From a virus (taxonomy: Duplodnaviria > Caudoviricetes): DNA of 50,545 nucleotides. Within the stretch, counting starts at the first letter, position 1. Each line of letters starts with the position of its first letter. Location: positions 1 through 50,545 of IMG/VR virus record IMGVR_UViG_3300003465_000010; one strand, 5' to 3'. A program made the translations under genes and the position numbers. Positions 23,282 to 42,560 of this stretch are shown piece after piece. The notes below the pieces were generated by a model. It was not told the origin of the DNA. It made no database searches and saw only the letters and a program-made list of their open reading frames with translations.

Positions 23282-24321
23282 CCCCTTTACCAATCATCGA
23301 CGGCTGCCTCTACATCGACAACACCCAACTCGAGAACTTCCAAACCTGTTCTCGTCAGTGGGAATACGGCTACGTCCGTCGTCGCATCCTAGACGGCTCA
23401 GGCGCCGCCGTCCGCTTCGGTGCCGCAGCGCACAAGATGATGCAATACCGCTACTCCAAGGAAGACTTCCTCTCGGCCATCGACGGACCGGATATGATTG
23501 CTGCTGGTCTACAATACCTCGAAGCCAACCCCTGTCCCTCCGAGGAATGGCGGAACGCTGAACAGCTTTCCCTGCTCGGCGAAACCTACAACAAAGAATA
23601 TGCCACCGAACGAGTCATCGTGGAAAAACTTAATCGCAAGCTCACTCTCCCAGAGCGGTGGGAATACCTTGCCGCCGACTTCCACCATGCTAAAGACTTG
23701 TCCAGCACGACTCAGCATGTCATTCTCACAAATCACGGAATCCCTACCATGGGTCTCCGTCCATACGTCGAACGCCCCTTCGCCATCCCTCTCGCCGTGT
23801 TTGCCTACAGAGGTGAGCCGGTTACCGTTATATACACCGGCCGTATCGACCTCGTCGAGCGAGAACACCACCGTCTCTGGGTCTGGGACCACAAAACCAC
23901 CACCATCATGGGCTCCCAGTTCTCCGACCACCTAAACATGTCCGCCCAATTCCCCGGTTACATGTGGGCGGTTCATAAACGCACCGGCGAATTCCCCCTC
24001 GGCTACAAGGTCAACATCCTCGGCTCACGTCAACCCACCGCCAAAGGCACCGGCAAACGCATCGAACTCTCCCGCGAAACCTTCCCTAAAGACTGGCGTC
24101 TGGTTGAAGAATGGCGTGACAACACCATCCAACTCCTCGAAGAAGTCTTCTTTCATGCGAACAAAGGACACTTTCCATTGAAGAAAGTCTGGTGCGTGGG
24201 GAAATTCGGCAAGTGCCAATACTATGATGTGTGTTCCTCTCCGACCCCCGAAGCGCGTGAGATGCTTTTGACCTCTGGTTTGTATAAACACAACGACTGG
24301 TCGCCGTTGAAGGAGGATTGA
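23278..24321 (+). CDS. Cas4/RecB-like PD-(D/E)XK exonuclease
   Basis: FG...H, E, GRIDL, DHKT, Q..GY motifs; 1+3 Cys cluster (TCSR...WC...KCQYYDVC). Confidence 0.85.
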   Translation: MTPLPIIDGCLYIDNTQLENFQTCSRQWEYGYVRRRILDGSGAAVRFGAAAHKMMQYRYSKEDFLSAIDGPDMIAAGLQYLEANPCPSEEWRNAEQLSLLGETYNKEYATERVIVEKLNRKLTLPERWEYLAADFHHAKDLSSTTQHVILTNHGIPTMGLRPYVERPFAIPLAVFAYRGEPVTVIYTGRIDLVEREHHRLWVWDHKTTTIMGSQFSDHLNMSAQFPGYMWAVHKRTGEFPLGYKVNILGSRQPTAKGTGKRIELSRETFPKDWRLVEEWRDNTIQLLEEVFFHANKGHFPLKKVWCVGKFGKCQYYDVCSSPTPEAREMLLTSGLYKHNDWSPLKED

Positions 24322-30377: not shown

Positions 30378-33039
30378 AGTCCCCAACTCATTCCCCACCA
30401 CCACCGCCGCATACCGCATCGCCTTCGTTGGCGAAGCCCCCGGCGAACAGGAAACCCTCGAAGGCAAACCCTTCGTCGGAATGTCCGGACGCTTTCTTCG
30501 CTCCCTCATGTCCAAATCCGGTATCGACCCAAACGCTTGCTTCTTCGGTAACATCTGTCAACACCGACCACCAAACAATGACATCTCACAATTCTCCAAA
30601 GACGGCCCGGAGTTCCGTGACGGGTTCCACCAACTCAAACTCGACCTCATCGCCTTCAACCCGAACCTCATCGTCCTCCTTGGCAACACTGCCCTCTCTC
30701 AGTTTAAGGGCGGTAAAACGTCGGTTGACGCGTGGCGTGGGTCTTTATTCGAAGCCTACTTTCACGACCCTACCAAAACCGACTTCGAGCCCTTGCGATT
30801 CAAGTGCCTGTCGACTTACCATCCAGCCGGAGTTTTACGCCAATACTCTTGGACGCCATTACTTAATTTTGACCTTATTAGGGCGCGCAGTGAAGGGACT
30901 ACGCCCACTCTCACCCTCCCGAAAAGGGTCATCGAAACGAGTCTACCCCTTGACGTACTGGTCGCAAAGCTCCGAGACCTACGTGCTAACCCACGACACA
31001 TCGCGATAGACATAGAAGGCGGCGTGCAAGAAGGCGTCACCTGTATCTCCTTCGCCGACTCGCCCACCTACGCCTTCGTCGTTCCCTTCTACTTCGGCCA
31101 GTGGTGTCCTTGGACTTTAGACGAGGAAGCCTTGCTGTTGAAGGAAGTTGCTCTCACACTGGCCGATCCCAACGTCCCCAAGATTCTACAGAACGGTCTC
31201 TACGACCTATTCGTTCTCGCCTACCATATGAAGATATTGGTCCGCGGGTTCGCCGACGACATCATGCTTATGGGCTGGGAACTCATGTGTGAAATCGAGA
31301 AAGGTCTCGCCGTCCAGGCCTCCCTCTACACCAAAGAACCCTACTACAAATCAGAACGTCAAACCCAAGACCGAACACAATTCTTCACCTACAACGGAAA
31401 GGACTCCTGTGTCACCTACGAAATCTGGCAACACCACAAATCTAAACTTCACGATTGTAGCCTTGCCCACTATCGCTTTAATTTTGAGTTGCTCCTACCT
31501 CTCCTTTACTCGGAGCTTCGTGGTATCCTTTTCGATAAGGAAAGGTCTGTGGCTCGTCTTGATAAAACAACTGCCGAAATATACGGAGTTCAGCACGAAC
31601 TAAACAAGCTCGCTGGCATCTCCCTCACCATCCAATCCATTTTTGAAAAATGTCGTGAACTCTGCTTCGTCAAAGACGTCAAAAAAGGTCTTGTCAACAC
31701 CTTCGCCGACCTTATCCAGCATTCTAAAACATCAACCTTCGCCGACGTTAATCGCATCGTCGCTATCATTACTGCGGCAGCGCGTGATCAACGTGAACTT
31801 ACGCCGAGCGAACTCGGTGAAATATCCATCCTCCTAAAGTGTGAACTGAACGTGGACTCCCCACCACAAATGACGGAATTTCTCTACCGAAAACTCAAAC
31901 TCCCAGTACAATACAAGAAAGGAAAGAAAAATGAAGACGGCGAAAGGTCAGAAACGACGGACAAACTCGCGCTCCTCAAACTCAAAGGGAAACACCCCTC
32001 AGTCCAAGCAATCGACCTCATCATCAAACTGCGCGCTCTTTACACTGCCACCGAAACCCTTGGCAATAAAGCTGATCCTGACGGAAGAATCAGGTGCGGC
32101 TATAACATTGTGGGCTCCGAAACTGGACGACTTAGCTGTTATACTTCCCCTTCAGGTTCAGGTTTCAACCTCCAAACCGTCACCAAGAAAAACCGAGATA
32201 TTTATCGAGCTGACGGAGGCTATGACCTCAACCAAAACGACCTAGCCGGTGCTGACGGCTGGACAGTCGCCGCCCACTGCAAATCCCTCGGCGACCCTAC
32301 TATGTGGGACGACTATCTCGCCAAACTCAAACCCGCACAGATTCTTTCCCTCATGTACCTCGGCTACGACGTCAACCGTATGTCCCGCGACGACCTCCGC
32401 GTCCTCTGCAAACAAATCAAAGACGGCAAAGCCACTGAAATCAACCCTCACTCTTGGCTCTACTTCGCCTGCAAACGCGTCCAGCACGGTTCCAACTACA
32501 TGATGCGTGAATGGACCATGTCGGATCAAATTCTCCAAGACTCTTTCAAGCTCACCGGAGAAGCCGTCTACGTCGCCCCAGACATCTGCGCCAAGCTACA
32601 GCGTTTGTATCTAACCCGCTACCCAGGCGTCCTGCAATGGCAACGTGTCTCCGCAACGAAATTAAAGCAGTTTAGATACATGATCGTTCCCTCCGGCCAC
32701 AAGAGAATCTTCATGGGTCGTCCGGACGAAGAATCAACTCTTAAAGAATGGCTCGCACATGAACCACAAGCAAACACCACCTACGCCACCAACAAAGCCC
32801 TTCACCGGTTATGGTACGACCAATCAAATCGCCGTCCTGACGGAGGACTCTACATCGAAAACCTCCATCAAGTTCACGATGCCCTCATCACTCAGTGGCC
32901 AAGTGACCTTCGTCAGTGGGCAGTGGGAAAAATCCGCGAATGGTTCAACAACCCTCTCACCATTGCCGGACAATCTGTAACCATCCCCTTCGAGGGTGCC
33001 TATGGCCCTTCGTGGGGTGAACAAGAAAACCCTATCTGA
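30367..33039 (+). CDS. polA: Family A DNA polymerase with N-terminal family-4 uracil-DNA glycosylase and 3'-5' exonuclease
   Basis: UDG GEAPG...PFVG..G, HPAGVL; Exo DIE, NGLYD, YNGKD; Pol ETGRLS, NLQ, motif A DLAGAD, motif B KRVQHGSNY, motif C QVHDAL. Confidence 0.92.
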   Translation: MANKVPNSFPTTTAAYRIAFVGEAPGEQETLEGKPFVGMSGRFLRSLMSKSGIDPNACFFGNICQHRPPNNDISQFSKDGPEFRDGFHQLKLDLIAFNPNLIVLLGNTALSQFKGGKTSVDAWRGSLFEAYFHDPTKTDFEPLRFKCLSTYHPAGVLRQYSWTPLLNFDLIRARSEGTTPTLTLPKRVIETSLPLDVLVAKLRDLRANPRHIAIDIEGGVQEGVTCISFADSPTYAFVVPFYFGQWCPWTLDEEALLLKEVALTLADPNVPKILQNGLYDLFVLAYHMKILVRGFADDIMLMGWELMCEIEKGLAVQASLYTKEPYYKSERQTQDRTQFFTYNGKDSCVTYEIWQHHKSKLHDCSLAHYRFNFELLLPLLYSELRGILFDKERSVARLDKTTAEIYGVQHELNKLAGISLTIQSIFEKCRELCFVKDVKKGLVNTFADLIQHSKTSTFADVNRIVAIITAAARDQRELTPSELGEISILLKCELNVDSPPQMTEFLYRKLKLPVQYKKGKKNEDGERSETTDKLALLKLKGKHPSVQAIDLIIKLRALYTATETLGNKADPDGRIRCGYNIVGSETGRLSCYTSPSGSGFNLQTVTKKNRDIYRADGGYDLNQNDLAGADGWTVAAHCKSLGDPTMWDDYLAKLKPAQILSLMYLGYDVNRMSRDDLRVLCKQIKDGKATEINPHSWLYFACKRVQHGSNYMMREWTMSDQILQDSFKLTGEAVYVAPDICAKLQRLYLTRYPGVLQWQRVSATKLKQFRYMIVPSGHKRIFMGRPDEESTLKEWLAHEPQANTTYATNKALHRLWYDQSNRRPDGGLYIENLHQVHDALITQWPSDLRQWAVGKIREWFNNPLTIAGQSVTIPFEGAYGPSWGEQENPI

Positions 33040-33043
33040 CCGC

Positions 33044-33062
33044 ATTAGCAACTAATTCTCAC
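33044..33062 (+). promoter_or_regulatory. ATTAG-caa-CTAAT-TCTCAC motif
   Basis: Fills the 27-nt gap between polA and DUF3987; 4 nt before the ATG. Confidence 0.65.
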
Positions 33063-33066
33063 CAGC

Positions 33067-34359
33067 ATGTCTTTCCTACGTAATTACCTAACCTACAACT
33101 CCGGCAATGAATGCCCACCCGAATATCACCTCTGGTCAGCTCTCGTCATACTTGCAAACGTCGTTTCGCGGCGGGTGTATCTTGACATGGAGTATTTTCA
33201 AATCACTCCGAACTTATACGTTACGTTGGTGGGCTCCCAAGGGAACCGGAAGACGGTGGCTAAGGACATTGCCTACGACATGCTTAGAGAAGTATGTCCT
33301 TCCATACCCGTCTCAGCCGAGTCAGAGTCCAAAGAGGCTATCACTAAGTACATGGCAGCGCCTGAACAAAATCGAAGTTACACTGACCCTCTCACTAACG
33401 AAAACATCGAATACCGTCCCTACGGTATCTTCGCCACAGAACTCAAAAACTTCCTCTCCATCAACCAGGTAGTGATGGTTGACTTCCTCACCACGATCTA
33501 TGACAGAAAATTCTACGACGTCAAGACGAAGAATAAAGGCACGGACGTTATCAAGAATCCGTGCGTTAACTTCTTGGCCTGCGAAACACCTGAATGGATT
33601 ATTGCCAGACTTAAGGACTCTGTTATTTCTGGTGGTTTTTGTCGTCGGATGGTGTTTGTTTATTCGAATTCTCCACGAAAGCGCATTGCGTTTCCGAAAA
33701 TCACAGACGAACAACGAGCAGCTTTTGAAGCCTGTAAGAACCAACTAAGGAAGATTAAGGACATCGCCGGGAAGGTCAAATTCGACGACGAAGCGAAGAC
33801 GTTCTACGAAAACTGGTACAATAACCTAAAATTCCCCGACGACCCGTTCATGAAGGGCTGGATGGAGTCGAAGCACATCCAGATGTTGAAGGTGGCAATC
33901 CTCATCATGGTGTCGGAGATGGAGGAACCGGACCACACAAAGCTGATATTGAAAAAATCCCACATCGAAGACGCTCTCGCGTGCATCGACGAAGGGGTAG
34001 AGAAGAACCTGGGGAAACTAGGCGAATCCGTTGGCAGAAACGAAATGGCCTTGCCGACGAACAAAATCCTAGAGTTAGTGAAGGAAAAGGGCGGAGCCGT
34101 GCCCGAGAAGGATATTCAACACCTAATGATGCGTGACCTGAGCGGGATGGAGTTCTTGGCCGCCGTTCACGCGCTGGTGGGTATGGAGAAGTTAGTTAAG
34201 ATAAAGCTCGCCGACCCACGTACTAACGTCGTGCGCCACTGGCTCTTAACCCCAGAGAAAGCACAAGCCTTTAAAAACGCTACCAACCAAGTTATCACTC
34301 CAACTCCCGCGAAGGACGCAACTGCTTCATCACCATCATCCTCGCCTGCTGGTAAGTAA
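33067..34359 (+). CDS. DUF3987/YfjI-like AAA+ helicase-type ATPase
   Basis: ECPPEYHLWS, PNLYVTLVGSQGNRKT, NPCVNFLACETP, GGFCRRMVFV. Confidence 0.75.
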   Translation: MSFLRNYLTYNSGNECPPEYHLWSALVILANVVSRRVYLDMEYFQITPNLYVTLVGSQGNRKTVAKDIAYDMLREVCPSIPVSAESESKEAITKYMAAPEQNRSYTDPLTNENIEYRPYGIFATELKNFLSINQVVMVDFLTTIYDRKFYDVKTKNKGTDVIKNPCVNFLACETPEWIIARLKDSVISGGFCRRMVFVYSNSPRKRIAFPKITDEQRAAFEACKNQLRKIKDIAGKVKFDDEAKTFYENWYNNLKFPDDPFMKGWMESKHIQMLKVAILIMVSEMEEPDHTKLILKKSHIEDALACIDEGVEKNLGKLGESVGRNEMALPTNKILELVKEKGGAVPEKDIQHLMMRDLSGMEFLAAVHALVGMEKLVKIKLADPRTNVVRHWLLTPEKAQAFKNATNQVITPTPAKDATASSPSSSPAGK

Positions 34360-37300
34360 GACTCGGATTCATCGCTCTCAACCTATCAACCATAACCGCC
34401 AATGTCAACTCCTGATTCGACACAACCCCCGCACCGGGAATACCTAAACTTCTTTCAACTACTTTCCGCTCTTGAAGCCGTCTCAACTCAGGTTTCTGCG
34501 GAGCCTGCGTATAAGTCGCTGCTAGACTTGCTCTATCATCAACACCGACTTTGCGACCACTACGGTACAAGTCAGCTGGCTCAGTCATGTTCTGAACTAA
34601 CTCAGCGACTCTTCGCACTCCGCTCCGAGCATCGTAACCTTCAAGCTCGTGTTGCATCGCAATTAGGTCTCTACGCACGCCAAGCGTATCTCCAGTCAGT
34701 AGACGCTCAGCTAGGTCACGGTGGAAGCGATTCAGCCGGTCGCCTTGAATCTGTTCCGAACGCTTCAGGATCGACTGTTGTTCGTAATACTGCGATAACC
34801 TCTTGGGAGAGAATCCAGCAACTCGTGCCAAAGTCTCAGAAGCTGTTGGATCAAACACAAGATTACCTAAACGATCTTTCACTTGCCAATTATTCGTGGC
34901 AAGATCAACGAGACCTCGGAGACCGGTTGGAGAAACTCTGCGAGCTGCTGACTCAAATTCACCCTTTGACGCGTCAGACACAGCTTTCGTCCAGTTAGCC
35001 GCCATGTTCGCCGCAGGACCAAACACATTTTGCCATGAAAACCCATCGTAAGAATTCATCCCGAAAACGTTCCCGAGTTGGAACCTTGCTCCAACATCCG
35101 CCGGACCGAGATTCAACACCCCATGCAACGACGCATCCGCCATCATCCCCCCTAGCTGTTCGTCTTGACCTGCAAGAGACGCTATTGCTTCCCGTAACTC
35201 TTTACGAACTTCGGCTTCTGGAAACAGTTGTTCGACTAGTGCGATGGCAGTCGCAGCAAACGGAAGGCCAAGGGCTCCTCCAAGGACAACTTGCGTACCA
35301 AGCATTAAGCCCACTGCACGACGCGCTGCAGAACGTTCTGTATCCGAAAGGCCAGAACGCCCAATCGCCTCCTTCGCCAACCTCCCCATATAAGCAATAG
35401 TGTTGAACGTATATGAACTCAACGCATACATCAATCCCCCTACGCCTTGAGCCCTTCCCATGTAAGAAAATACAAGAGGACGAGCAGCAGTTCCTCCAGT
35501 ATATGCTGTTGATCGGACGGCATCTTTCGCGAACGAATATGATTCGTCCTTTGACTTCCCGCGAGCTAAGGCAAATTCAAACGCACTTAAAAAGGCTGAC
35601 CGAGTTACTAAATGTGCTGGCACGGAATAGAACTGCCGAGCTAGCTTCATTAACCAATACCCAGGCTTCTTGGCAGTCTCCAGAGAGTTTACAAACTCAT
35701 TACCACGAGAAAGGTTCCGAAGGTTGATGGTATTCACATCCTCCGTCATGGTAATCTCCTGCACGAATCCCTGGTCAACCACCCCTTCATTCGCCGCCCT
35801 TTTCAACGCCTCCGCCAGCACCGGCTCCTCCTTTTCCAGGTTCACCTTATCAAACGCATACTTCGCTGCCTTTGACATGGCCTTTGCCGTAAGCTGATAC
35901 GCCTCCTTCATCGACGCACCCTCTCGAACCAAATACGGCACATGAGCTACAGCAAGCTGCGTAGGTTCCGTAAACCACGTCGCTGGACTCAGTCCCATAT
36001 ACTGAAAGAACACCAAACTCTTTAACGCTTGAAACTCCTTCCCACCCGGCGTGATGATGTTGTTCAAATACTGACGCGCTGCGTTCTGGATGTTCGGGTT
36101 CGCCCGCATTTCCGGTGTATGCAGTCTTATCGCTGCTTCCGCGCGGATGAACTGTTTCGCCAGCCCAAGAGACGTACTATCTATATAGTGCATCATACCG
36201 GCCATCATGTTGAGGTCTTCGCGTCCACCTACCAGGTTTCTTTCCTGCATCGACGGTGGCGTAATCATCCTCCACGCACCCTCCCCTGGCATGAACATGT
36301 CTTTCATGAACGCGATCTCCTCCGGTGAGAGATTATCCATCGACGCTAACATCTTCTCATATGCAACCTTATCCATCTCCGCATACCGCTGAAGTAAATC
36401 CGGGTCAAAGTTCTGCGCCATGTTCTGACGATCGCGCTTATCCCATTTCTTTGGTTCGATACCTCGGGCACGAAGTTTTTGTAGATACTGTAAGGCTTCC
36501 TTCTCAGTGTAAAACCCTTTCACAAAAGGGCGTTTTCCCTCTCTCCACCCAAGAAAGTAATCGCCGAGGCGTACCTCAGTCGTCCACCACGGCTTGCCTG
36601 TTCCATCAGGTCCCAACAATTTCAGTTTCACCTCCTCCAACTTCGGCTTCATGGAGTTGCTGAAGTCTACCAGGTCGGCAAGCACCGCAATCGGCAACTG
36701 CTGCACCGCTGGACTAATGGGTCCGTTTTCAAACGTATGCACATAAACCTGCTCGGCCAACTTCTTTGCGCCGTTTATATCCATCTTTTGTGTAGGACCC
36801 AACTTCTGCACCAGCTTCATGGCGATTGTGGACTTTATCTTGTCCACTTCGCCTGAGAGTCGGGCAATGGCAGCCCGGACGGATGTTTGAGAGATGGCCG
36901 ACAGCCCACGCTTTAGTAGGGCTTGGTTATCAGCCGATAAATGCCCCGCATACTGCGCGAACTCCTCCGCATCCAAAAACCTCTGCACCTCATTCTGCGC
37001 CAACAAAATCTCCGACAACGGTCTCTGGATCACCGACTTTGGGTCAGTCAACTGCCGCACAAACTCCTCATCCAGCTTCCCCGAACCGTCCAGTTTAAAA
37101 AACGGCTCCCACAGCTTCTTCGCAATCTCCGTTGCATGGTTCTGGAATCCTGTCCCTAGGTCAAACACCGGACCCATTATTGGGAAGTCCTTCACCAACT
37201 GTCCCATTGGCTTAATATAGTCCAACCAACCAAGCCTGAGCCCTGACTCCTTCTCCCACGTGCTCGGCTCAAACATCATCTCATACCCCTTCTTCACCAA

Positions 37301-39748
37301 CTCCTTAAATTCAGGGAAGTTTTGAGTCTCCGGCACACCGTGTTTATCATACCCTTTCCACATAAGAAGGTCCGCTGCAGCGTATACCTTCTTAATATCC
37401 TCATACGAAATTGGGGGAGAATAGGGCGTCCGTTCTAAATTCGCTGCCACCATCGACAGATATTGTTTCGCCGTATCCGCCGCCAACCTCTCCTTCATTA
37501 ACGACGATACATTCTTCAACGCCTCCGTCATCGGCGCAGCGTGCTTCCTTTTCGTTGCCTCATCGCCATGCCAGAGAGCGTCGAGTAGAGTCTCGTTCCC
37601 GTGTAAAACAGCCCCAATATCCGTATACATCTGGAACATGAAATCCTGCACCCTTGGCTCGGAGAACCGGAGCATCTCAAGAATGTTCTTGAAGGACTTC
37701 TCTCCCGCTGGTGAACTCGCGCCCATCGCCAGCAATCCACTCACATCCCCCATAAACTCCCTCACTCCAGCCTCCCCGTCCGCATAAACCTTCCCTCTCC
37801 GCTCATACATCATCTCGATCGCTGGTAGGTCAGCCGCTCCTACTCCCTTCACCGACGGAGTCGAAACAACCACCTTCGGGAAGACCGCAGCATGAAGTGT
37901 GGTGAAAACATCCTGCAACTCCTGCGGACTGTAACCTTTGAAGGTCTGGTACGCATCCGCATACACCTTATTCGCCCTCGGATCACCCGCTCCAATCTTC
38001 ACATCCTGTCCCCAAGCATGTGTCAACTCATGCCCTACCACCCACAACGTATGAGCCATATCCCTCGCCGTGAGGTCGAAGGACCTGTTCTGCGCCAACA
38101 CCACCATCTTTCCGTCCGGACTTTCGGTGAGAGGAATGAAGAAATTCACATCCTGATCCTTCCCCCTCACCACCTTCACATCAAACTGCCCTAACGCCAC
38201 CGCCATCTTTGTTGCGATGTTGGAAAGACGGTCAATGCCAGCAGGGTCGTATCCTCGCTGTTCGTAGAGACTCTTGAAGAAGGTTGTGACACCCTTCACC
38301 GTCGAGAAGTTATTCGGACGCTGAAACTCCGGCTGACCTAGTGCTTGACCCACATCCTCCAGCACCGCACGCTTCGCTGCCTCTCTCGCAATGTCAACGT
38401 CCGAAACCTCCGGCATTTTCTGACTGAGCTCAACAACCTTCGTCAGCTGCTCATCGGTCGCACCAAGATCGGAAAGTTTATTCAAAACCTTCGACAGGTA
38501 TTCACTGTTTGGTGCAGTTTCGAGGGGAGGTTTCACAACCATGTTCTGCGTTGCCGGAGTCTTATCCGTCTGCGCCAACGCAAACTTCCCATTCAACCCC
38601 TGCATCACCAGTCCCCTTTTCGACAACTCCTGCATCACAGTCGTCGCCTGCGAAAACGGTATTCCCAACTTCTTCGACAATGGCGCCGGATTCACTGGCA
38701 TTCCTGCCTTAAAGTGCACATACGCTTCATTCGCCAACTCCTCGATGGGTTTTAGCGACACCACAAGCTCCGGTGTCGGATCAGGTACCGCCTCCTCCAC
38801 CTTTTTCGTGGTAACCTCCTCCGTCTTCACCTCATTCTCCTTCGCCCGTAATGGTTCGACCACCTCGTCGATACTCACCGACAAGTCCACTACGGCCCGA
38901 CGTGCATCTTCAACATTCAGCCAATCACCGCGGGAAGCGATAGGCGTCTCGGTCCCCCGTGCGAGGTCCACCAAGTTGGCCGCTTCGGGACCTTTGGAAG
39001 TTAGTTTATACCCCTTAGCCAACATCGGGGCATCGAATGGTAGAAAAGCCAAACCACCCGCGATGTTAGCTACCACGTTCTCCTTGGTAAACGGATTTTG
39101 GAGACCCTGCCCTTGTACAAGGGACGAAAGCTGATTACCCACCTCAATCGGCACCTGCGCACCCACTTGCGCCCCAGCATACTCCACTCCCCTCTGCGCC
39201 AACGGCGAAAGTCCTTTCTTCGCCATGTCTTTGGTGACATACTTTGCCGCAGCCTTGACACCGAGATTAGCCGCACCCGGCACGAGACCAGTCGACAACC
39301 CACTAATAGCCCCTACAGCCGGACTCCCTGTCTCCGTATACCCCTTAGCACCGGCAGACAATATCCCGGCCAACGCAGCGCCTAAACCTATCGGTCCGCC
39401 AGCAGCCGTCCCAGCAGCCACGGCTCCAATCTCTCCACCCATTCGTGGAATAGCCTTCCCCACATCTTCCAGCACATCCGGGAACCCAATAACCTCCCCA
39501 ACACTCCGTCCTGCCCTCCCTAACGGCTCTGAAAGTGGTGCTAAAGCCTTGTCGATTCCAGTACTCGCACGCTTGACCAACCCACCCAACTTCGTCGTAT
39601 CCCCAGCACTAAAATCATCCGTCTGTAACGTCTGATTCGCATACCTCGCAAACGACCCCAAGTCCATGTCCGCAAAAAACGGATCGGACGTCCTCGCCAG
39701 TTCGTGCGCCTTCTGTACTTGTTCGAATGATAAAGGCATATCAACCAA
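34295..39748 (-). CDS. Giant internal virion/ejection protein (polyvalent-like)
   Basis: 1817 aa, last late gene; Gly/Ala-rich N-terminal hydrophobic segments, wHTH-like segment, HELTH zincin motif. Confidence 0.8.
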   Translation of the reverse strand: MVDMPLSFEQVQKAHELARTSDPFFADMDLGSFARYANQTLQTDDFSAGDTTKLGGLVKRASTGIDKALAPLSEPLGRAGRSVGEVIGFPDVLEDVGKAIPRMGGEIGAVAAGTAAGGPIGLGAALAGILSAGAKGYTETGSPAVGAISGLSTGLVPGAANLGVKAAAKYVTKDMAKKGLSPLAQRGVEYAGAQVGAQVPIEVGNQLSSLVQGQGLQNPFTKENVVANIAGGLAFLPFDAPMLAKGYKLTSKGPEAANLVDLARGTETPIASRGDWLNVEDARRAVVDLSVSIDEVVEPLRAKENEVKTEEVTTKKVEEAVPDPTPELVVSLKPIEELANEAYVHFKAGMPVNPAPLSKKLGIPFSQATTVMQELSKRGLVMQGLNGKFALAQTDKTPATQNMVVKPPLETAPNSEYLSKVLNKLSDLGATDEQLTKVVELSQKMPEVSDVDIAREAAKRAVLEDVGQALGQPEFQRPNNFSTVKGVTTFFKSLYEQRGYDPAGIDRLSNIATKMAVALGQFDVKVVRGKDQDVNFFIPLTESPDGKMVVLAQNRSFDLTARDMAHTLWVVGHELTHAWGQDVKIGAGDPRANKVYADAYQTFKGYSPQELQDVFTTLHAAVFPKVVVSTPSVKGVGAADLPAIEMMYERRGKVYADGEAGVREFMGDVSGLLAMGASSPAGEKSFKNILEMLRFSEPRVQDFMFQMYTDIGAVLHGNETLLDALWHGDEATKRKHAAPMTEALKNVSSLMKERLAADTAKQYLSMVAANLERTPYSPPISYEDIKKVYAAADLLMWKGYDKHGVPETQNFPEFKELVKKGYEMMFEPSTWEKESGLRLGWLDYIKPMGQLVKDFPIMGPVFDLGTGFQNHATEIAKKLWEPFFKLDGSGKLDEEFVRQLTDPKSVIQRPLSEILLAQNEVQRFLDAEEFAQYAGHLSADNQALLKRGLSAISQTSVRAAIARLSGEVDKIKSTIAMKLVQKLGPTQKMDINGAKKLAEQVYVHTFENGPISPAVQQLPIAVLADLVDFSNSMKPKLEEVKLKLLGPDGTGKPWWTTEVRLGDYFLGWREGKRPFVKGFYTEKEALQYLQKLRARGIEPKKWDKRDRQNMAQNFDPDLLQRYAEMDKVAYEKMLASMDNLSPEEIAFMKDMFMPGEGAWRMITPPSMQERNLVGGREDLNMMAGMMHYIDSTSLGLAKQFIRAEAAIRLHTPEMRANPNIQNAARQYLNNIITPGGKEFQALKSLVFFQYMGLSPATWFTEPTQLAVAHVPYLVREGASMKEAYQLTAKAMSKAAKYAFDKVNLEKEEPVLAEALKRAANEGVVDQGFVQEITMTEDVNTINLRNLSRGNEFVNSLETAKKPGYWLMKLARQFYSVPAHLVTRSAFLSAFEFALARGKSKDESYSFAKDAVRSTAYTGGTAARPLVFSYMGRAQGVGGLMYALSSYTFNTIAYMGRLAKEAIGRSGLSDTERSAARRAVGLMLGTQVVLGGALGLPFAATAIALVEQLFPEAEVRKELREAIASLAGQDEQLGGMMADASLHGVLNLGPADVGARFQLGNVFGMNSYDGFSWQNVFGPAANMAANWTKAVSDASKGEFESAARRVSPTGLRGLVDLATNNWQVKDRLGNLVFDPTASETLARVAGFSPKRLSQYYEQQSILKRSEQIQGDRLNRFHRDLAERLLTGDTLGVRRDLIAMQHELEGYDARSGVRRVAELVQNMTEPADLYRSGRKVGVDDRASLAATYTQAPQKPELRRLQERKVVERSLGIPGAGVVSNQELTLAVMVDRLRAMNPSLTYQQARMMVMKQLRPSRELE
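34402..34998 (+). CDS. Candidate antisense-nested helical protein A (198 aa)
   Basis: ATG 42 nt after the DUF3987 stop; amphipathic Leu/Gln helices; host gene shifts to A-ending codons here. Confidence 0.55.
   Translation: MSTPDSTQPPHREYLNFFQLLSALEAVSTQVSAEPAYKSLLDLLYHQHRLCDHYGTSQLAQSCSELTQRLFALRSEHRNLQARVASQLGLYARQAYLQSVDAQLGHGGSDSAGRLESVPNASGSTVVRNTAITSWERIQQLVPKSQKLLDQTQDYLNDLSLANYSWQDQRDLGDRLEKLCELLTQIHPLTRQTQLSSS
35035..35400 (+). CDS. Candidate antisense-nested protein B (121 aa)
   Basis: Same frame as A, 36-nt gap, Leu/Gln-rich helical core. Confidence 0.45.
   Translation: MKTHRKNSSRKRSRVGTLLQHPPDRDSTPHATTHPPSSPLAVRLDLQETLLLPVTLYELRLLETVVRLVRWQSQQTEGQGLLQGQLAYQALSPLHDALQNVLYPKGQNAQSPPSPTSPYKQ
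35413..35727 (+). CDS. Candidate antisense-nested protein C (104 aa)
   Basis: Same frame, 12-nt gap, TATATG start context, RELRQIQTHLKRLTELLNVLARNR helix. Confidence 0.5.
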   Translation: MNSTHTSIPLRLEPFPCKKIQEDEQQFLQYMLLIGRHLSRTNMIRPLTSRELRQIQTHLKRLTELLNVLARNRTAELASLTNTQASWQSPESLQTHYHEKGSEG

Positions 39749-40274: not shown

Positions 40275-41386
40275 TATCGTATCTCCTTCATTAGACGTGA
40301 AATCTCCGATCTCAACCGGTCAATCTCATCAACGATCGGCCTGTTCTGCGTTGGCAGTGCCATCAACCTATCGAGTTGTTGTTGCAGGTCAACAAGCTGC
40401 TGTGCTGACTGTTGACGATTCGGTCGCTTCGGATAAAACTCACCAAACTTCCCTTGCCCAGTCGTTAATTCGTGAAAAGCACGGTCCAACACGCTCCCTT
40501 GCAACGTGAACCCTTTATTCTTCAACGCTTCCCTCTCCGGCGTACCTTCCACAAACCTTGCCGGTAGGTCGTTACGTTGCGCCGGCTGGAACATCGGTGT
40601 TGTTTGTGTTTGTTGCTGTGGTTGAGTAGTTTGTTGCCCTCCTACCACTTGCTCTCTCACCCTCTGCAACGTCTCCAATCCCTGGGGTTTCGGTGCCTCC
40701 GGAAACACCATCCCCAGCTTCTGCAACTCAGCCATCAGCGCTTGCGTCACCTGCGGCATGGCTGCCGAATACGGAGACGTCAACGCCTGCAACAAATCTC
40801 CTCGTCCACGTTGCTGTAACTCAGCCTGATTTTGTTGTTGTGTAACCTGTCGATACTGGTCATTCGCCTTTAACTGCTGTTCCTGCAACCCGATCTGCTT
40901 TTCGTTCTGCCCCGACGTAATCCCAAACTGCCGCATCTGTTCCTCTAACGACCTCTGAGCACGATCGTCCTGCCGATACCCCAAATCGACATTCGCGCCT
41001 TGTGGTGTCATTGGCCTTCCCTGTATCACCCTCGCTCTCGCGTCCTGCTGTCCTTGATTAAACAACGTCTCCTGCTGCGTGATCGCTTGTTGGTTCGCTT
41101 GATTCCCCAACTGCTGACCCGTCAACTGCTCCTGCAACGTGCGAGCATCGAAACTCCCCAACTGCCCAGCATCCAACTGCTTCGCCGTGGCCATCCTTCT
41201 TCCCAAATCAAACGCCTGAAACAACGCCTGAGCACTCTGTGCTTGCGGCACTGCAACATTCACCTGATTCTGGGCATCAAGCTCCTGTCTTCCTTGCTGA
41301 GTAAACCCCCTTGCCACTGCGAACGGATTTAACCGTCCGTTGGTCATATTACCCGGATTAGCTAATATATCAAGCCACGAGGCCAT
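40274..41386 (-). CDS. Gln-rich ejection protein
   Basis: Probable start MASWLDILAN at 41386; coiled-coil Q-rich. Confidence 0.75.
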   Translation of the reverse strand: MASWLDILANPGNMTNGRLNPFAVARGFTQQGRQELDAQNQVNVAVPQAQSAQALFQAFDLGRRMATAKQLDAGQLGSFDARTLQEQLTGQQLGNQANQQAITQQETLFNQGQQDARARVIQGRPMTPQGANVDLGYRQDDRAQRSLEEQMRQFGITSGQNEKQIGLQEQQLKANDQYRQVTQQQNQAELQQRGRGDLLQALTSPYSAAMPQVTQALMAELQKLGMVFPEAPKPQGLETLQRVREQVVGGQQTTQPQQQTQTTPMFQPAQRNDLPARFVEGTPEREALKNKGFTLQGSVLDRAFHELTTGQGKFGEFYPKRPNRQQSAQQLVDLQQQLDRLMALPTQNRPIVDEIDRLRSEISRLMKEIR

Positions 41387-42560
41387 ACGTCGATCCTTTC
41401 TTGTTAAAACTTCCGCACACTCTCCACACGCCCAACCACACCTTAAACACCGGCTTACACAGCCACCCAAAATTAGCCTCCCCCGCCAAGTCCCATGAAC
41501 CGTAATACGTAATCGGCTTAACCATCAGCCAATTCACCAAATTAGCGACTAATTTCCACCTCCGCATCGCTGGGACTAACCATGACGACATCCAGTTATA
41601 TCCGTTGCGGTTGTGGGAGTTGACGTAGGTGTCTCGACCGAGGCGAACGAACCAAGGGAGTTTGCCGTTGTACGCCTCCAGAAAGATGAAGCAGCACGAT
41701 AGGCCAGTGGACCAGCCGAATTGGGACTGAACCTGTTGTCCTTGCCCGGTAAGGTTGTCCGTCTGTGTAGTCTTAGGTGAGCCTAGAACGTCGGCCGCAA
41801 GTGCGAGGTTTCCAAGGTTGACTTGGCGATTACCGGCGACTCTACCGGAGGCATCAAGACCTTGTTGATTACGAGTAGCTTCACCAGCGTTCCTTTGCTG
41901 TATTGCACCGATGGAGATGCCACGTCGGGACGCCTCGATCGCGTTAGCAATCTGGGTAGCCTCACCCACAACCCCAGCATCTTGTCGCTGTTGTTGCTTA
42001 ATGTCGCGAAACCGATTCTGGGAAAGCGCTGTACCGAGTTCGGCAAGTTCAAAGCCTTGACGTGCGGTCCCGCCACGTACGTTGGCCGGACCTGACTGCG
42101 CTGCTGCTCGTGCTTTGTCGAAGGAGCGTTCATATAAATCCTGAGTGTTGGTTTCGTAGTCAGAACCATAAGGGTTCTGAGCAATCATTGTTTCGAGAGC
42201 GGAACGACCGACACCGGTGGTTGGGTCAAGGGTAGAGAAGGTGTCGAGCGTGGATGCACCGGGCATTTGACTGGCGTTCCGTTGCAATAAACCGGATAAG
42301 AAGGTAGTGTCGAGGTTGGATAGGTTCGACGAGACAGCCGGAGCGTTGTAGAGGTTCGACAAAGCCGTCCCTAAGTCCGACGGAAGGGCAAATTGTTTTT
42401 GCGTGGTCGACGTGCCGGAACGGTCGAATGCGGTGTTTGTTTGTGTATCACTCCCACCGACCTCGAAGTTGACCGCATCTTCACACCCTGGATAAAGGTC
42501 ACGCTCCGCCGCGACGATCCGTTCGGCGGCCTTTAGACACTGTTTAAATAACTCACTCAT
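41370..42560 (-). CDS. Pilot/ejection protein with C-terminal CFI-box-like domain
   Basis: GGSDTQTNT-type N-terminal region; GLSCCFIFLEAYNG...RLGRD...GY..MSSWLVP.M. Confidence 0.75.
   Translation of the reverse strand: MSELFKQCLKAAERIVAAERDLYPGCEDAVNFEVGGSDTQTNTAFDRSGTSTTQKQFALPSDLGTALSNLYNAPAVSSNLSNLDTTFLSGLLQRNASQMPGASTLDTFSTLDPTTGVGRSALETMIAQNPYGSDYETNTQDLYERSFDKARAAAQSGPANVRGGTARQGFELAELGTALSQNRFRDIKQQQRQDAGVVGEATQIANAIEASRRGISIGAIQQRNAGEATRNQQGLDASGRVAGNRQVNLGNLALAADVLGSPKTTQTDNLTGQGQQVQSQFGWSTGLSCCFIFLEAYNGKLPWFVRLGRDTYVNSHNRNGYNWMSSWLVPAMRRWKLVANLVNWLMVKPITYYGSWDLAGEANFGWLCKPVFKVWLGVWRVCGSFNKKGSTYGLVA

Follow-up and report, generated by a model that had tools for sequence, protein, structure and literature searches.

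The IMG/VR virus record IMGVR_UViG_3300003465_000010, analyzed here over the whole of its 50,545 nucleotides (nt; hereafter the window), is a complete-looking 50.5-kb Caudoviricetes phage contig whose gene content splits into two arms. The plus strand carries an early arm, with genes for an exonuclease, a helicase, a ParB/methyltransferase, a ligase, a DNA polymerase and a DUF3987 primase, and the minus strand carries a late arm, with genes for the terminase subunits, the portal, fibre-like proteins and virion proteins, of which the last encodes a giant virion protein of 1817 amino acids (aa). The two arms converge at the 3' ends of the primase and giant genes (Table 1), and beyond the primase stop the plus strand continues, antisense to the giant gene, as three successive open reading frames (ORF1 to ORF3). 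These ORFs, and the question of whether they are genes overprinted on a conserved structural gene, are the subject of this analysis.

The primase gene product matches Pfam PF13148 at 58.6 bits, where the gathering score is 27, and the DNA primase family phrog_14296 at E = 7e-45. The giant protein belongs to the PLxRFG family of NCBIfam (NF032893, E = 3.2e-42, 144.9 bits against a cut-off of 100), matches phrog_11358 (E = 1.1e-29) and has 17 homologues besides its own protein at E <= 0.001. The PLxRFG domain makes up its C-terminal third and is the best-conserved part of the giant-protein family. Because this domain spans the overlap, the minus frame is truly coding across the disputed region, and the three candidates are hence long ORFs lying antisense within the final 1.4 kb of a gene of established coding status. 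As the original prediction had it, they all start with ATG, encode 198, 121 and 104 aa and share a single frame, with gaps of 42, 36 and 12 nt; this is also the frame of the primase gene, with stops at 34357 and 34393. It follows directly from this arrangement that the second base of each antisense codon faces the wobble base of the giant gene, again as had been proposed. The overlap of the early and late arms by 65 nt with no evident terminator was borne out too, since a scan of positions 33000-37000 returned five terminator-like sites, against 4.4 ± 2.1 in shuffled sequence, and none of them at the junction or just past 35727. A promoter scan likewise yielded sites no more numerous than in shuffles. 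The stops that precede ORF1 and ORF2 are each followed by CCG CCA in the plus frame (stretches 34393-34404 and 34996-35004).

Table 1. Features of the convergent junction and of the giant virion gene, in window coordinates
Feature	Position	Strand	Remarks
DUF3987-type DNA primase/helicase gene, 430 aa	33067..34359	+	Pfam PF13148, phrog_14296; final conventional gene of the early/replication arm
Convergent overlap of the 3' ends of the primase and giant genes, 65 nt	34295..34359	both	no terminator-like site
Giant virion protein gene, 1817 aa	34295..39748	-	last late-arm gene; HExxH at aa 573-577, C-terminal PLxRFG domain
PLxRFG domain, aa 1220-1689 of the giant protein	34682..36091	-	NCBIfam NF032893, phrog_11358
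Segment of the giant gene with low G+C at third codon positions (GC3)	34436..35632	-	two-boundary change-point fit, log-likelihood ratio 30.2
ORF1, 198 aa, 22.3 kDa, isoelectric point (pI) 6.1	34402..34998	+	strongest overprinting candidate; five helices predicted
ORF2, 121 aa, pI 10.1	35035..35400	+	basic N-terminus rich in Pro/Ser/Thr/His; in the wobble-shifted block, no signal of its own
Forced antisense stop between ORF2 and ORF3	35404..35406	+	Phe1448-Asn1449 (TTC-AAC), YTFNT motif
ORF3, 104 aa, 12 kDa, pI 9.4	35413..35727	+	moderate overprinting candidate

Silent sites of the giant gene opposite the three ORFs

Both frames are open across this block, and three kinds of statistic computed on the silent sites of the giant gene single it out. 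The most direct concerns stops, since a stop in the antisense frame requires a sense codon of the form NTT, NCT or NTC followed by a codon beginning with A. Between 34393 and 35725 the ORF frame contains three stops, against 16.6 ± 2.9 expected under local synonymous shuffling (three or fewer in 0 of 2000 shuffles) and 11.9 expected when the codon usage of the remainder of the gene is applied to the same block (three or fewer in 0.0010 of 2000 shuffles). The exact Poisson-binomial probability of observing at most three stops is 1.2e-5, and it is 2.6e-4 with the expectations scaled by 0.85, a correction that allows for a general mild stop deficit of the antisense frame. The stop between ORF2 and ORF3 is forced under any synonymous choice (probability 1.0), and the F[IMTNK] site responsible for it was found in 7 of 13 family members. 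Within the region, NTT, NCT and NTC codons are used at 98 of 184 sites before a base other than A and at 5 of 43 sites before A, while the control codons N[AG]T show no such avoidance (49 of 108 and 15 of 33, respectively); the corresponding figures for NTT, NCT and NTC in the rest of the giant gene are 167 of 493 and 47 of 177. The other plus-strand frames of the block are not depleted, with 25 and 14 stops.

Since the region had been picked after the fact, a genome-wide scan was conducted over 24 long genes in four alternative frames each, with 2000 simulated genomes for each null model. The three-stop block emerges as the top outlier of the genome (p between 0.0045 and 0.0115), and the stop-free run of ORF1 (lambda = 7.2) is the largest in the 24 genes and four frames. 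The second-largest run, of 124 codons (lambda 5.2), lies in the same region, at 35206-35578 in the +2 frame of the minus strand, and in part shares the avoidance of T-A junctions; it is probably due to chance, because a value of 5.2 falls within the maxima of the simulated genomes (median 5.1-5.5).

Start codons are placed in keeping with the stops. The antisense frame has five ATG codons in 443, and three of them sit 2, 12 and 2 codons past the stops that precede ORF1, ORF2 and ORF3, respectively, the sole ATG of ORF1 being codon 3 of 200. With stop positions held fixed, an ATG was present in all three head windows in a fraction of 0.0057 of 20000 synonymous shuffles, and a summed distance from stop to first ATG of 16 codons or fewer, a statistic set in advance, was obtained in 0.0063 of 20000 trials.

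The third statistic addresses the shape of the antisense proteins themselves. The helical hydrophobic moment of the antisense translation (100 degrees, 18-residue windows) was compared with that of synonymous shuffles, both under a simple amino-acid null and under a context-preserving null in which codons are permuted only among sites that share the amino acid and the next base, which retains the junction dinucleotides and, nearly, the antisense composition. Under the simple null the moment yields z = 3.8 for ORF1, 2.5 for ORF3 and 0.4 for ORF2; under the context-preserving null, ORF1 and ORF3 keep their excess (p = 0.0004 and p = 0.0024), and the pooled value was reached in 0 of 5000 shuffles. 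The excess in ORF1 is restricted to angles of 100-110 degrees. When the whole genome was scanned in 116 windows of 150 codons, the moment z proved to be well calibrated (mean about 0, standard deviation about 1), and the windows of the region ranked first and third under the simple null. With context preserved they gave z values of 3.5 and 3.1, of which the former is the maximum of the 116, the top outside window among those listed being at 2.5. Homologous antisense windows in four relatives gave z values from -2.1 to +2.0, and because these relatives lack the signal it is not a side-effect of the shared sense fold. The wobble bases opposite ORF1 and ORF3 would thus shape the second protein as well as keeping its frame open.

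Structure prediction points the same way with less force. AlphaFold 2, run without an alignment, gave ORF1 five helices at low confidence (pLDDT 50.4, pTM 0.39), whereas a control antisense ORF of 197 aa in the giant gene, at 38541..39134, gave a pLDDT of 29.8 and no secondary structure; with one control only, and that in a different frame, the contrast is weak evidence. This control is itself an ATG-started plus-strand ORF in another frame of the giant gene. Proline depletion in ORF1 (z = -4.4) was rejected as evidence, as the same depletion occurs in the relatives L001, L002 and L004 (z down to -3.7), where the frame is not open; the deficit is attributable to a codon-junction bias, namely the avoidance of G-G junctions in a Gly/Ala-rich domain.

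A change in the wobble composition of the giant gene accompanies these signals. A single change-point falls at 35713, with a plateau over about 35600-35790, and its log-likelihood ratio was reached in 0 of 200 permutations; the two-boundary fit delimits a segment that coincides with the ORF block at 34402-35727. Inside this segment the wobble frequencies are A 0.25, C 0.15, G 0.27 and T 0.33, against A 0.15, C 0.14, G 0.48 (0.475) and T 0.23 in the rest of the gene, and the shift persists within four-fold codon families (summed chi2 56.9, 24 degrees of freedom, p = 1.7e-4). The switch to A-ending codons originally put forward for this block therefore needs rewording: the shift is real and matches the ORFs, but the gain in T-ending codons exceeds the gain in A-ending ones.

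On a larger scale, wobble positions are C-rich on the plus strand regardless of gene orientation, with C at 0.40-0.58 over approximately 29-41.4 kb. From about 17000 to 41500, C at third positions (C3) lies at approximately 0.45-0.52 in plus-strand genes, and G3 at approximately 0.40-0.48 in minus-strand genes. Near 41.5 kb (41400-41700), inside the gene at 41370-42560, the plus-strand wobble flips from C-rich to G-rich, a switch that may reflect the limit of a replication-linked strand asymmetry or else a mosaic joint. The 3' half of the primase gene (33600-34230) is anomalous as well, in a manner that differs in kind from the ORF block (G3 up to 0.36-0.40, T3 down to 0.03-0.10), and the interval from 33 to 34 kb has the lowest GC content of the whole window (0.475).

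Proposed overprinting and its rivals in the light of distant relatives

Taken together, the stop, start and helix statistics argue for ORF1 and ORF3 as young, lineage-specific genes overprinted on the giant gene, a reading to which we assign a probability of roughly 0.58. According to this reading, the early operon would continue beyond the primase stop, and early transcripts would run past 34359 and enter the convergent giant gene of the late arm at its 3' end. Translation of these read-through transcripts would then yield at least two small, mostly alpha-helical proteins, those of ORF1 and ORF3, and possibly a third from ORF2. Their origin would lie in overprinting of the strand antisense to the conserved PLxRFG domain, with the sense protein held in place by the first and second bases of its codons while the wobble bases served as second bases of the antisense codons. 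Those wobble bases would have been recoded from G to T and A in such a way that stops were avoided, ATG codons were placed just past the remaining stops and amphipathic helices were spelled out. As regards function, our best guess, made from genomic position only, is that the products would be accessory proteins of the early phase, serving host takeover or anti-defence. The more ambitious statement that three genes were born de novo opposite the most conserved domain of the largest virion protein, rewriting its silent sites and extending the early operon, seems to us about evenly poised, and whether ORF2 is an overprinted gene is left undecided.

The relatives of the giant protein set limits on the age of any such genes. 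The closest, the protein P0007, is 82% identical in the region, followed by P0008 at 45%. An antisense stop is unavoidable wherever Phe is followed by Ile, Met, Thr, Asn or Lys, and by this rule the window protein and P0007 each have one unavoidable stop in the region, at the boundary between ORF3 and ORF2, as compared with 2 to 8 in the other 11 family members; within the three ORFs themselves, the P0007 protein is free of unavoidable stops. Risky dipeptides are depleted in the amino-acid sequences of the whole family, with values of 15-23% in the region across all 13 proteins, and this depletion was not taken as evidence. Comparison at the DNA level drew on five IMG/VR loci (L001, L002, L004, L005 and L006) that encode distant members of the family, 25-29% identical in the best tblastn segment; L002 reaches 38% over the C-terminal region, and L006 has nearly the same sequence as L004. 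A blastn search against phages gave no match, and tblastn gave hits at 22-27% identity only. The DNA of P0007 and P0008 was not found in viral contigs, queries with the family alignment A2 and with P0007 retrieved nothing from metagenome contigs, and the giant-protein family was not found in genome contigs.

Several observations weigh against overprinting, the lack of conservation among them. The original prediction had proposed looking for stops in this frame in relatives, and such stops are frequent in all five relatives with DNA, at near-expected rates: in the last 480 codons, the numbers seen and expected are 9 and 14.4 in L001, 23 and 27.5 in L002, 24 and 27.7 in L004, 9 and 17.0 in L005 and 24 and 27.4 in L006. 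An open antisense frame is hence not conserved among them. Being so distant (about 25-38% protein identity), these five loci exclude deep conservation only, and their stops imply that the ORFs are no trait of the whole family; if real, they would be young and limited to this phage's own clade. In 8 of the 13 family proteins a stop is forced at F1646, midway through ORF1, and even P0007 has Ile-Asn at positions 1353 and 1736, which makes an antisense stop unless the Ile codon is ATA. No credible homologue of ORF1 was found among word-sharing candidates. The three ORFs matched no family of Pfam or NCBIfam above cut-off, and ORF1 matched none in PHROG. ORF2 shows no helical signal when codon context is preserved (p = 0.32), and as single stop-free runs ORF2 and ORF3 are unremarkable, with a lambda of 2.9 each. 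None of the three ORFs is preceded by a Shine-Dalgarno motif, as judged from crude longest-ORF start calls; the motif is uninformative here because most genes of this phage are also without one. Codon-junction biases do exist in the PLxRFG domain, as the antisense proline depletion in relatives lacking the ORFs demonstrates. Of the claims made at the outset, amphipathic helices are thus supported for ORF1 and ORF3 but not for ORF2, and selection on the antisense proteins is supported in part, by stop depletion, ATG placement and the amphipathy of ORF1 and ORF3, without the backing of ORF2 or of the frame in relatives.

The most serious rival to overprinting treats the final 1.3 kb of the giant gene as an island of low GC3, imported by recombination from a T3/A3-rich relative or produced by a local change of mutational regime where the two arms meet, and the stop count, the ATG positions and the amphipathy as the extreme tail of the many alternative-frame stretches of a genome, with no functional translation. 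A compositional island of separate origin is plausible for three reasons. Wobble composition in this phage varies strongly by region and differs between the strands irrespective of gene orientation, with the flip near 41.5 kb; the neighboring primase gene deviates from the regional pattern as well, over approximately 33500-34230; and the island resembles in its wobble composition the whole giant gene of L002. Chance, for its part, is favored by the way in which the region came to notice, having been picked by a reader within a very large scan, and by the genome-wide probability of ORF1 considered alone, which is only 0.034-0.08. The antisense ORF at 38541..39134 indicates, moreover, that long antisense ORFs do arise by chance in the G3-rich giant gene. 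In the simple-null scan the helical moment of an unrelated window (23686-24135) likewise reaches z = 3.5, and none of the five relatives with DNA conserves the frame. A compositional shift of this kind makes the wrong prediction about stops, nonetheless, because the gain in T3 raises the expected number in the antisense frame from 11.9 to 16.6 instead of lowering it. The avoidance is also specific to stop-making trinucleotides and to a single frame, ATG placement and helical moment are separate statistics that both fall in the same 1.3 kb and that an island leaves unexplained, and the context-preserving maximum of the 116 windows belongs to this region. A mosaic origin may have played a part but finds no support in the identity to P0007, which stays between 69 and 90% per 100 residues over aa 401-1800 and shows no break at aa 1340. 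On balance we regard a chance island as less likely than overprinting, and as the main alternative to it.

In a different explanation, the frame would be kept open for ribosomes trailing the early RNA polymerase into the late gene, thereby blocking premature (Rho-type) termination and allowing early antisense transcription to lower or time giant-gene expression, and the peptides would be mere by-products. The convergence of the arms with no terminator-like site at the junction and the way in which the ORFs prolong the operon, in the frame of the primase gene and after short gaps, are both in line with such a role, as are stop depletion and ATG placement in the face of missing conservation and missing credible homologues, and an ORF2 that looks disordered and carries no structural signal. 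Open-frame maintenance of this kind predicts no selection on amino-acid patterns, however, whereas ORF1 and ORF3 display a helix-specific arrangement of wobble bases, and the wobble composition moves toward that typical of second codon positions in a protein-coding sequence. We hence consider it improbable, well behind a chance island, and retain overprinting of ORF1 and ORF3 as the preferred account.

A further tblastn search with ORF1 to ORF3 against the window, L001 and L002 gave nothing below E = 0.2 except self-matches, and the ESM Atlas returned no usable hit for ORF1 or ORF3. A look-up of sequencing runs covering 33900-36100 listed none, and no RNA holder either. The single phmmer hit of ORF1 (P0024, E = 9.4e-11) is a protein of 1400 aa with repeats of about 38 residues and eight matched stretches; we read its score as inflated by the repeats and discarded it.

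Known antisense genes and other features of the region

In HIV-1, a conserved structural gene is overprinted by an antisense ORF, the antisense protein gene asp, and the case for asp has been made mainly from the maintenance of the ORF. That argument was built on conservation across many strains, while the present one is built on the statistics of a single genome. In the survey of Schlub and Holmes (2020, PMC7017920), a passage mentions asp as hypothetical, and annotated antisense overlaps longer than 50 nt are listed for 84 of 1079 Siphoviridae, 82 of 544 Myoviridae and 21 of 347 Podoviridae genomes, with lengths of 50 to 2351 nt. The figures of that survey considered here are annotation counts without selection tests, whereas in the present case 1.3 kb of fully embedded sequence has been subjected to codon statistics. 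Viral antisense overlaps are described in a review as having received relatively little attention so far (PMC7457138).

Bacteria provide further parallels. In Pseudomonas aeruginosa, long antisense overlapping genes of 957 and 1536 nt have been described as embedded in annotated genes (PMC8850804). Like the ORFs discussed here, they are long, fully antisense-embedded in an established gene, young and proposed from sequence; unlike them, they are single bacterial ORFs, reported to be translated and under purifying selection, whereas the phage has three tandem ORFs that would extend an operon into a convergent late gene. The antisense overlapping genes reported for E. coli O157:H7 (PMC9927249) likewise lie inside known genes and are discarded by standard annotation, but they rest on RNA-seq and ribosome profiling, in place of the synonymous-site statistics of one genome used here. 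The present case appears unusual in two respects: the operon would be prolonged by three tandem ORFs for 1.3 kb within a conserved structural domain, and their support is drawn from several separate synonymous-site statistics of a single genome. Among the matches listed for the PLxRFG literature no title dealt with overlapping genes, no search having been aimed at antisense genes in the PLxRFG family.

Gene callers discard long antisense overlapping genes and, if ORF1 to ORF3 are indeed genes, some 1.3 kb of this phage would code on both strands while remaining invisible to standard annotation, a rare situation should expression be confirmed. The case would also mean that one genome alone can yield concordant signals of dual coding (stop avoidance, start placement and helix-periodic wobble), and it would provide a clean model of how genes are born de novo through overprinting, as well as an argument for screening phage structural genes with synonymous-site tests. 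For the phage itself, transcripts of the early arm would reach 1.4 kb into the final gene of the late arm, which might affect the timing of late expression.

Two further observations concern the neighborhood of these genes. The regions upstream of early genes are A/C-rich and G-poor, which may hint at the host or at the mode of initiation. The giant protein, in turn, bears a HELTH sequence of the HExxH type (38018-38032), in which the five closest family members all share H573, E574, L575 and H577, and E574 is nearly invariant across all 13. No Pfam family matched the site, and the motif itself suggests a zinc-metallopeptidase-like site in a virion protein.

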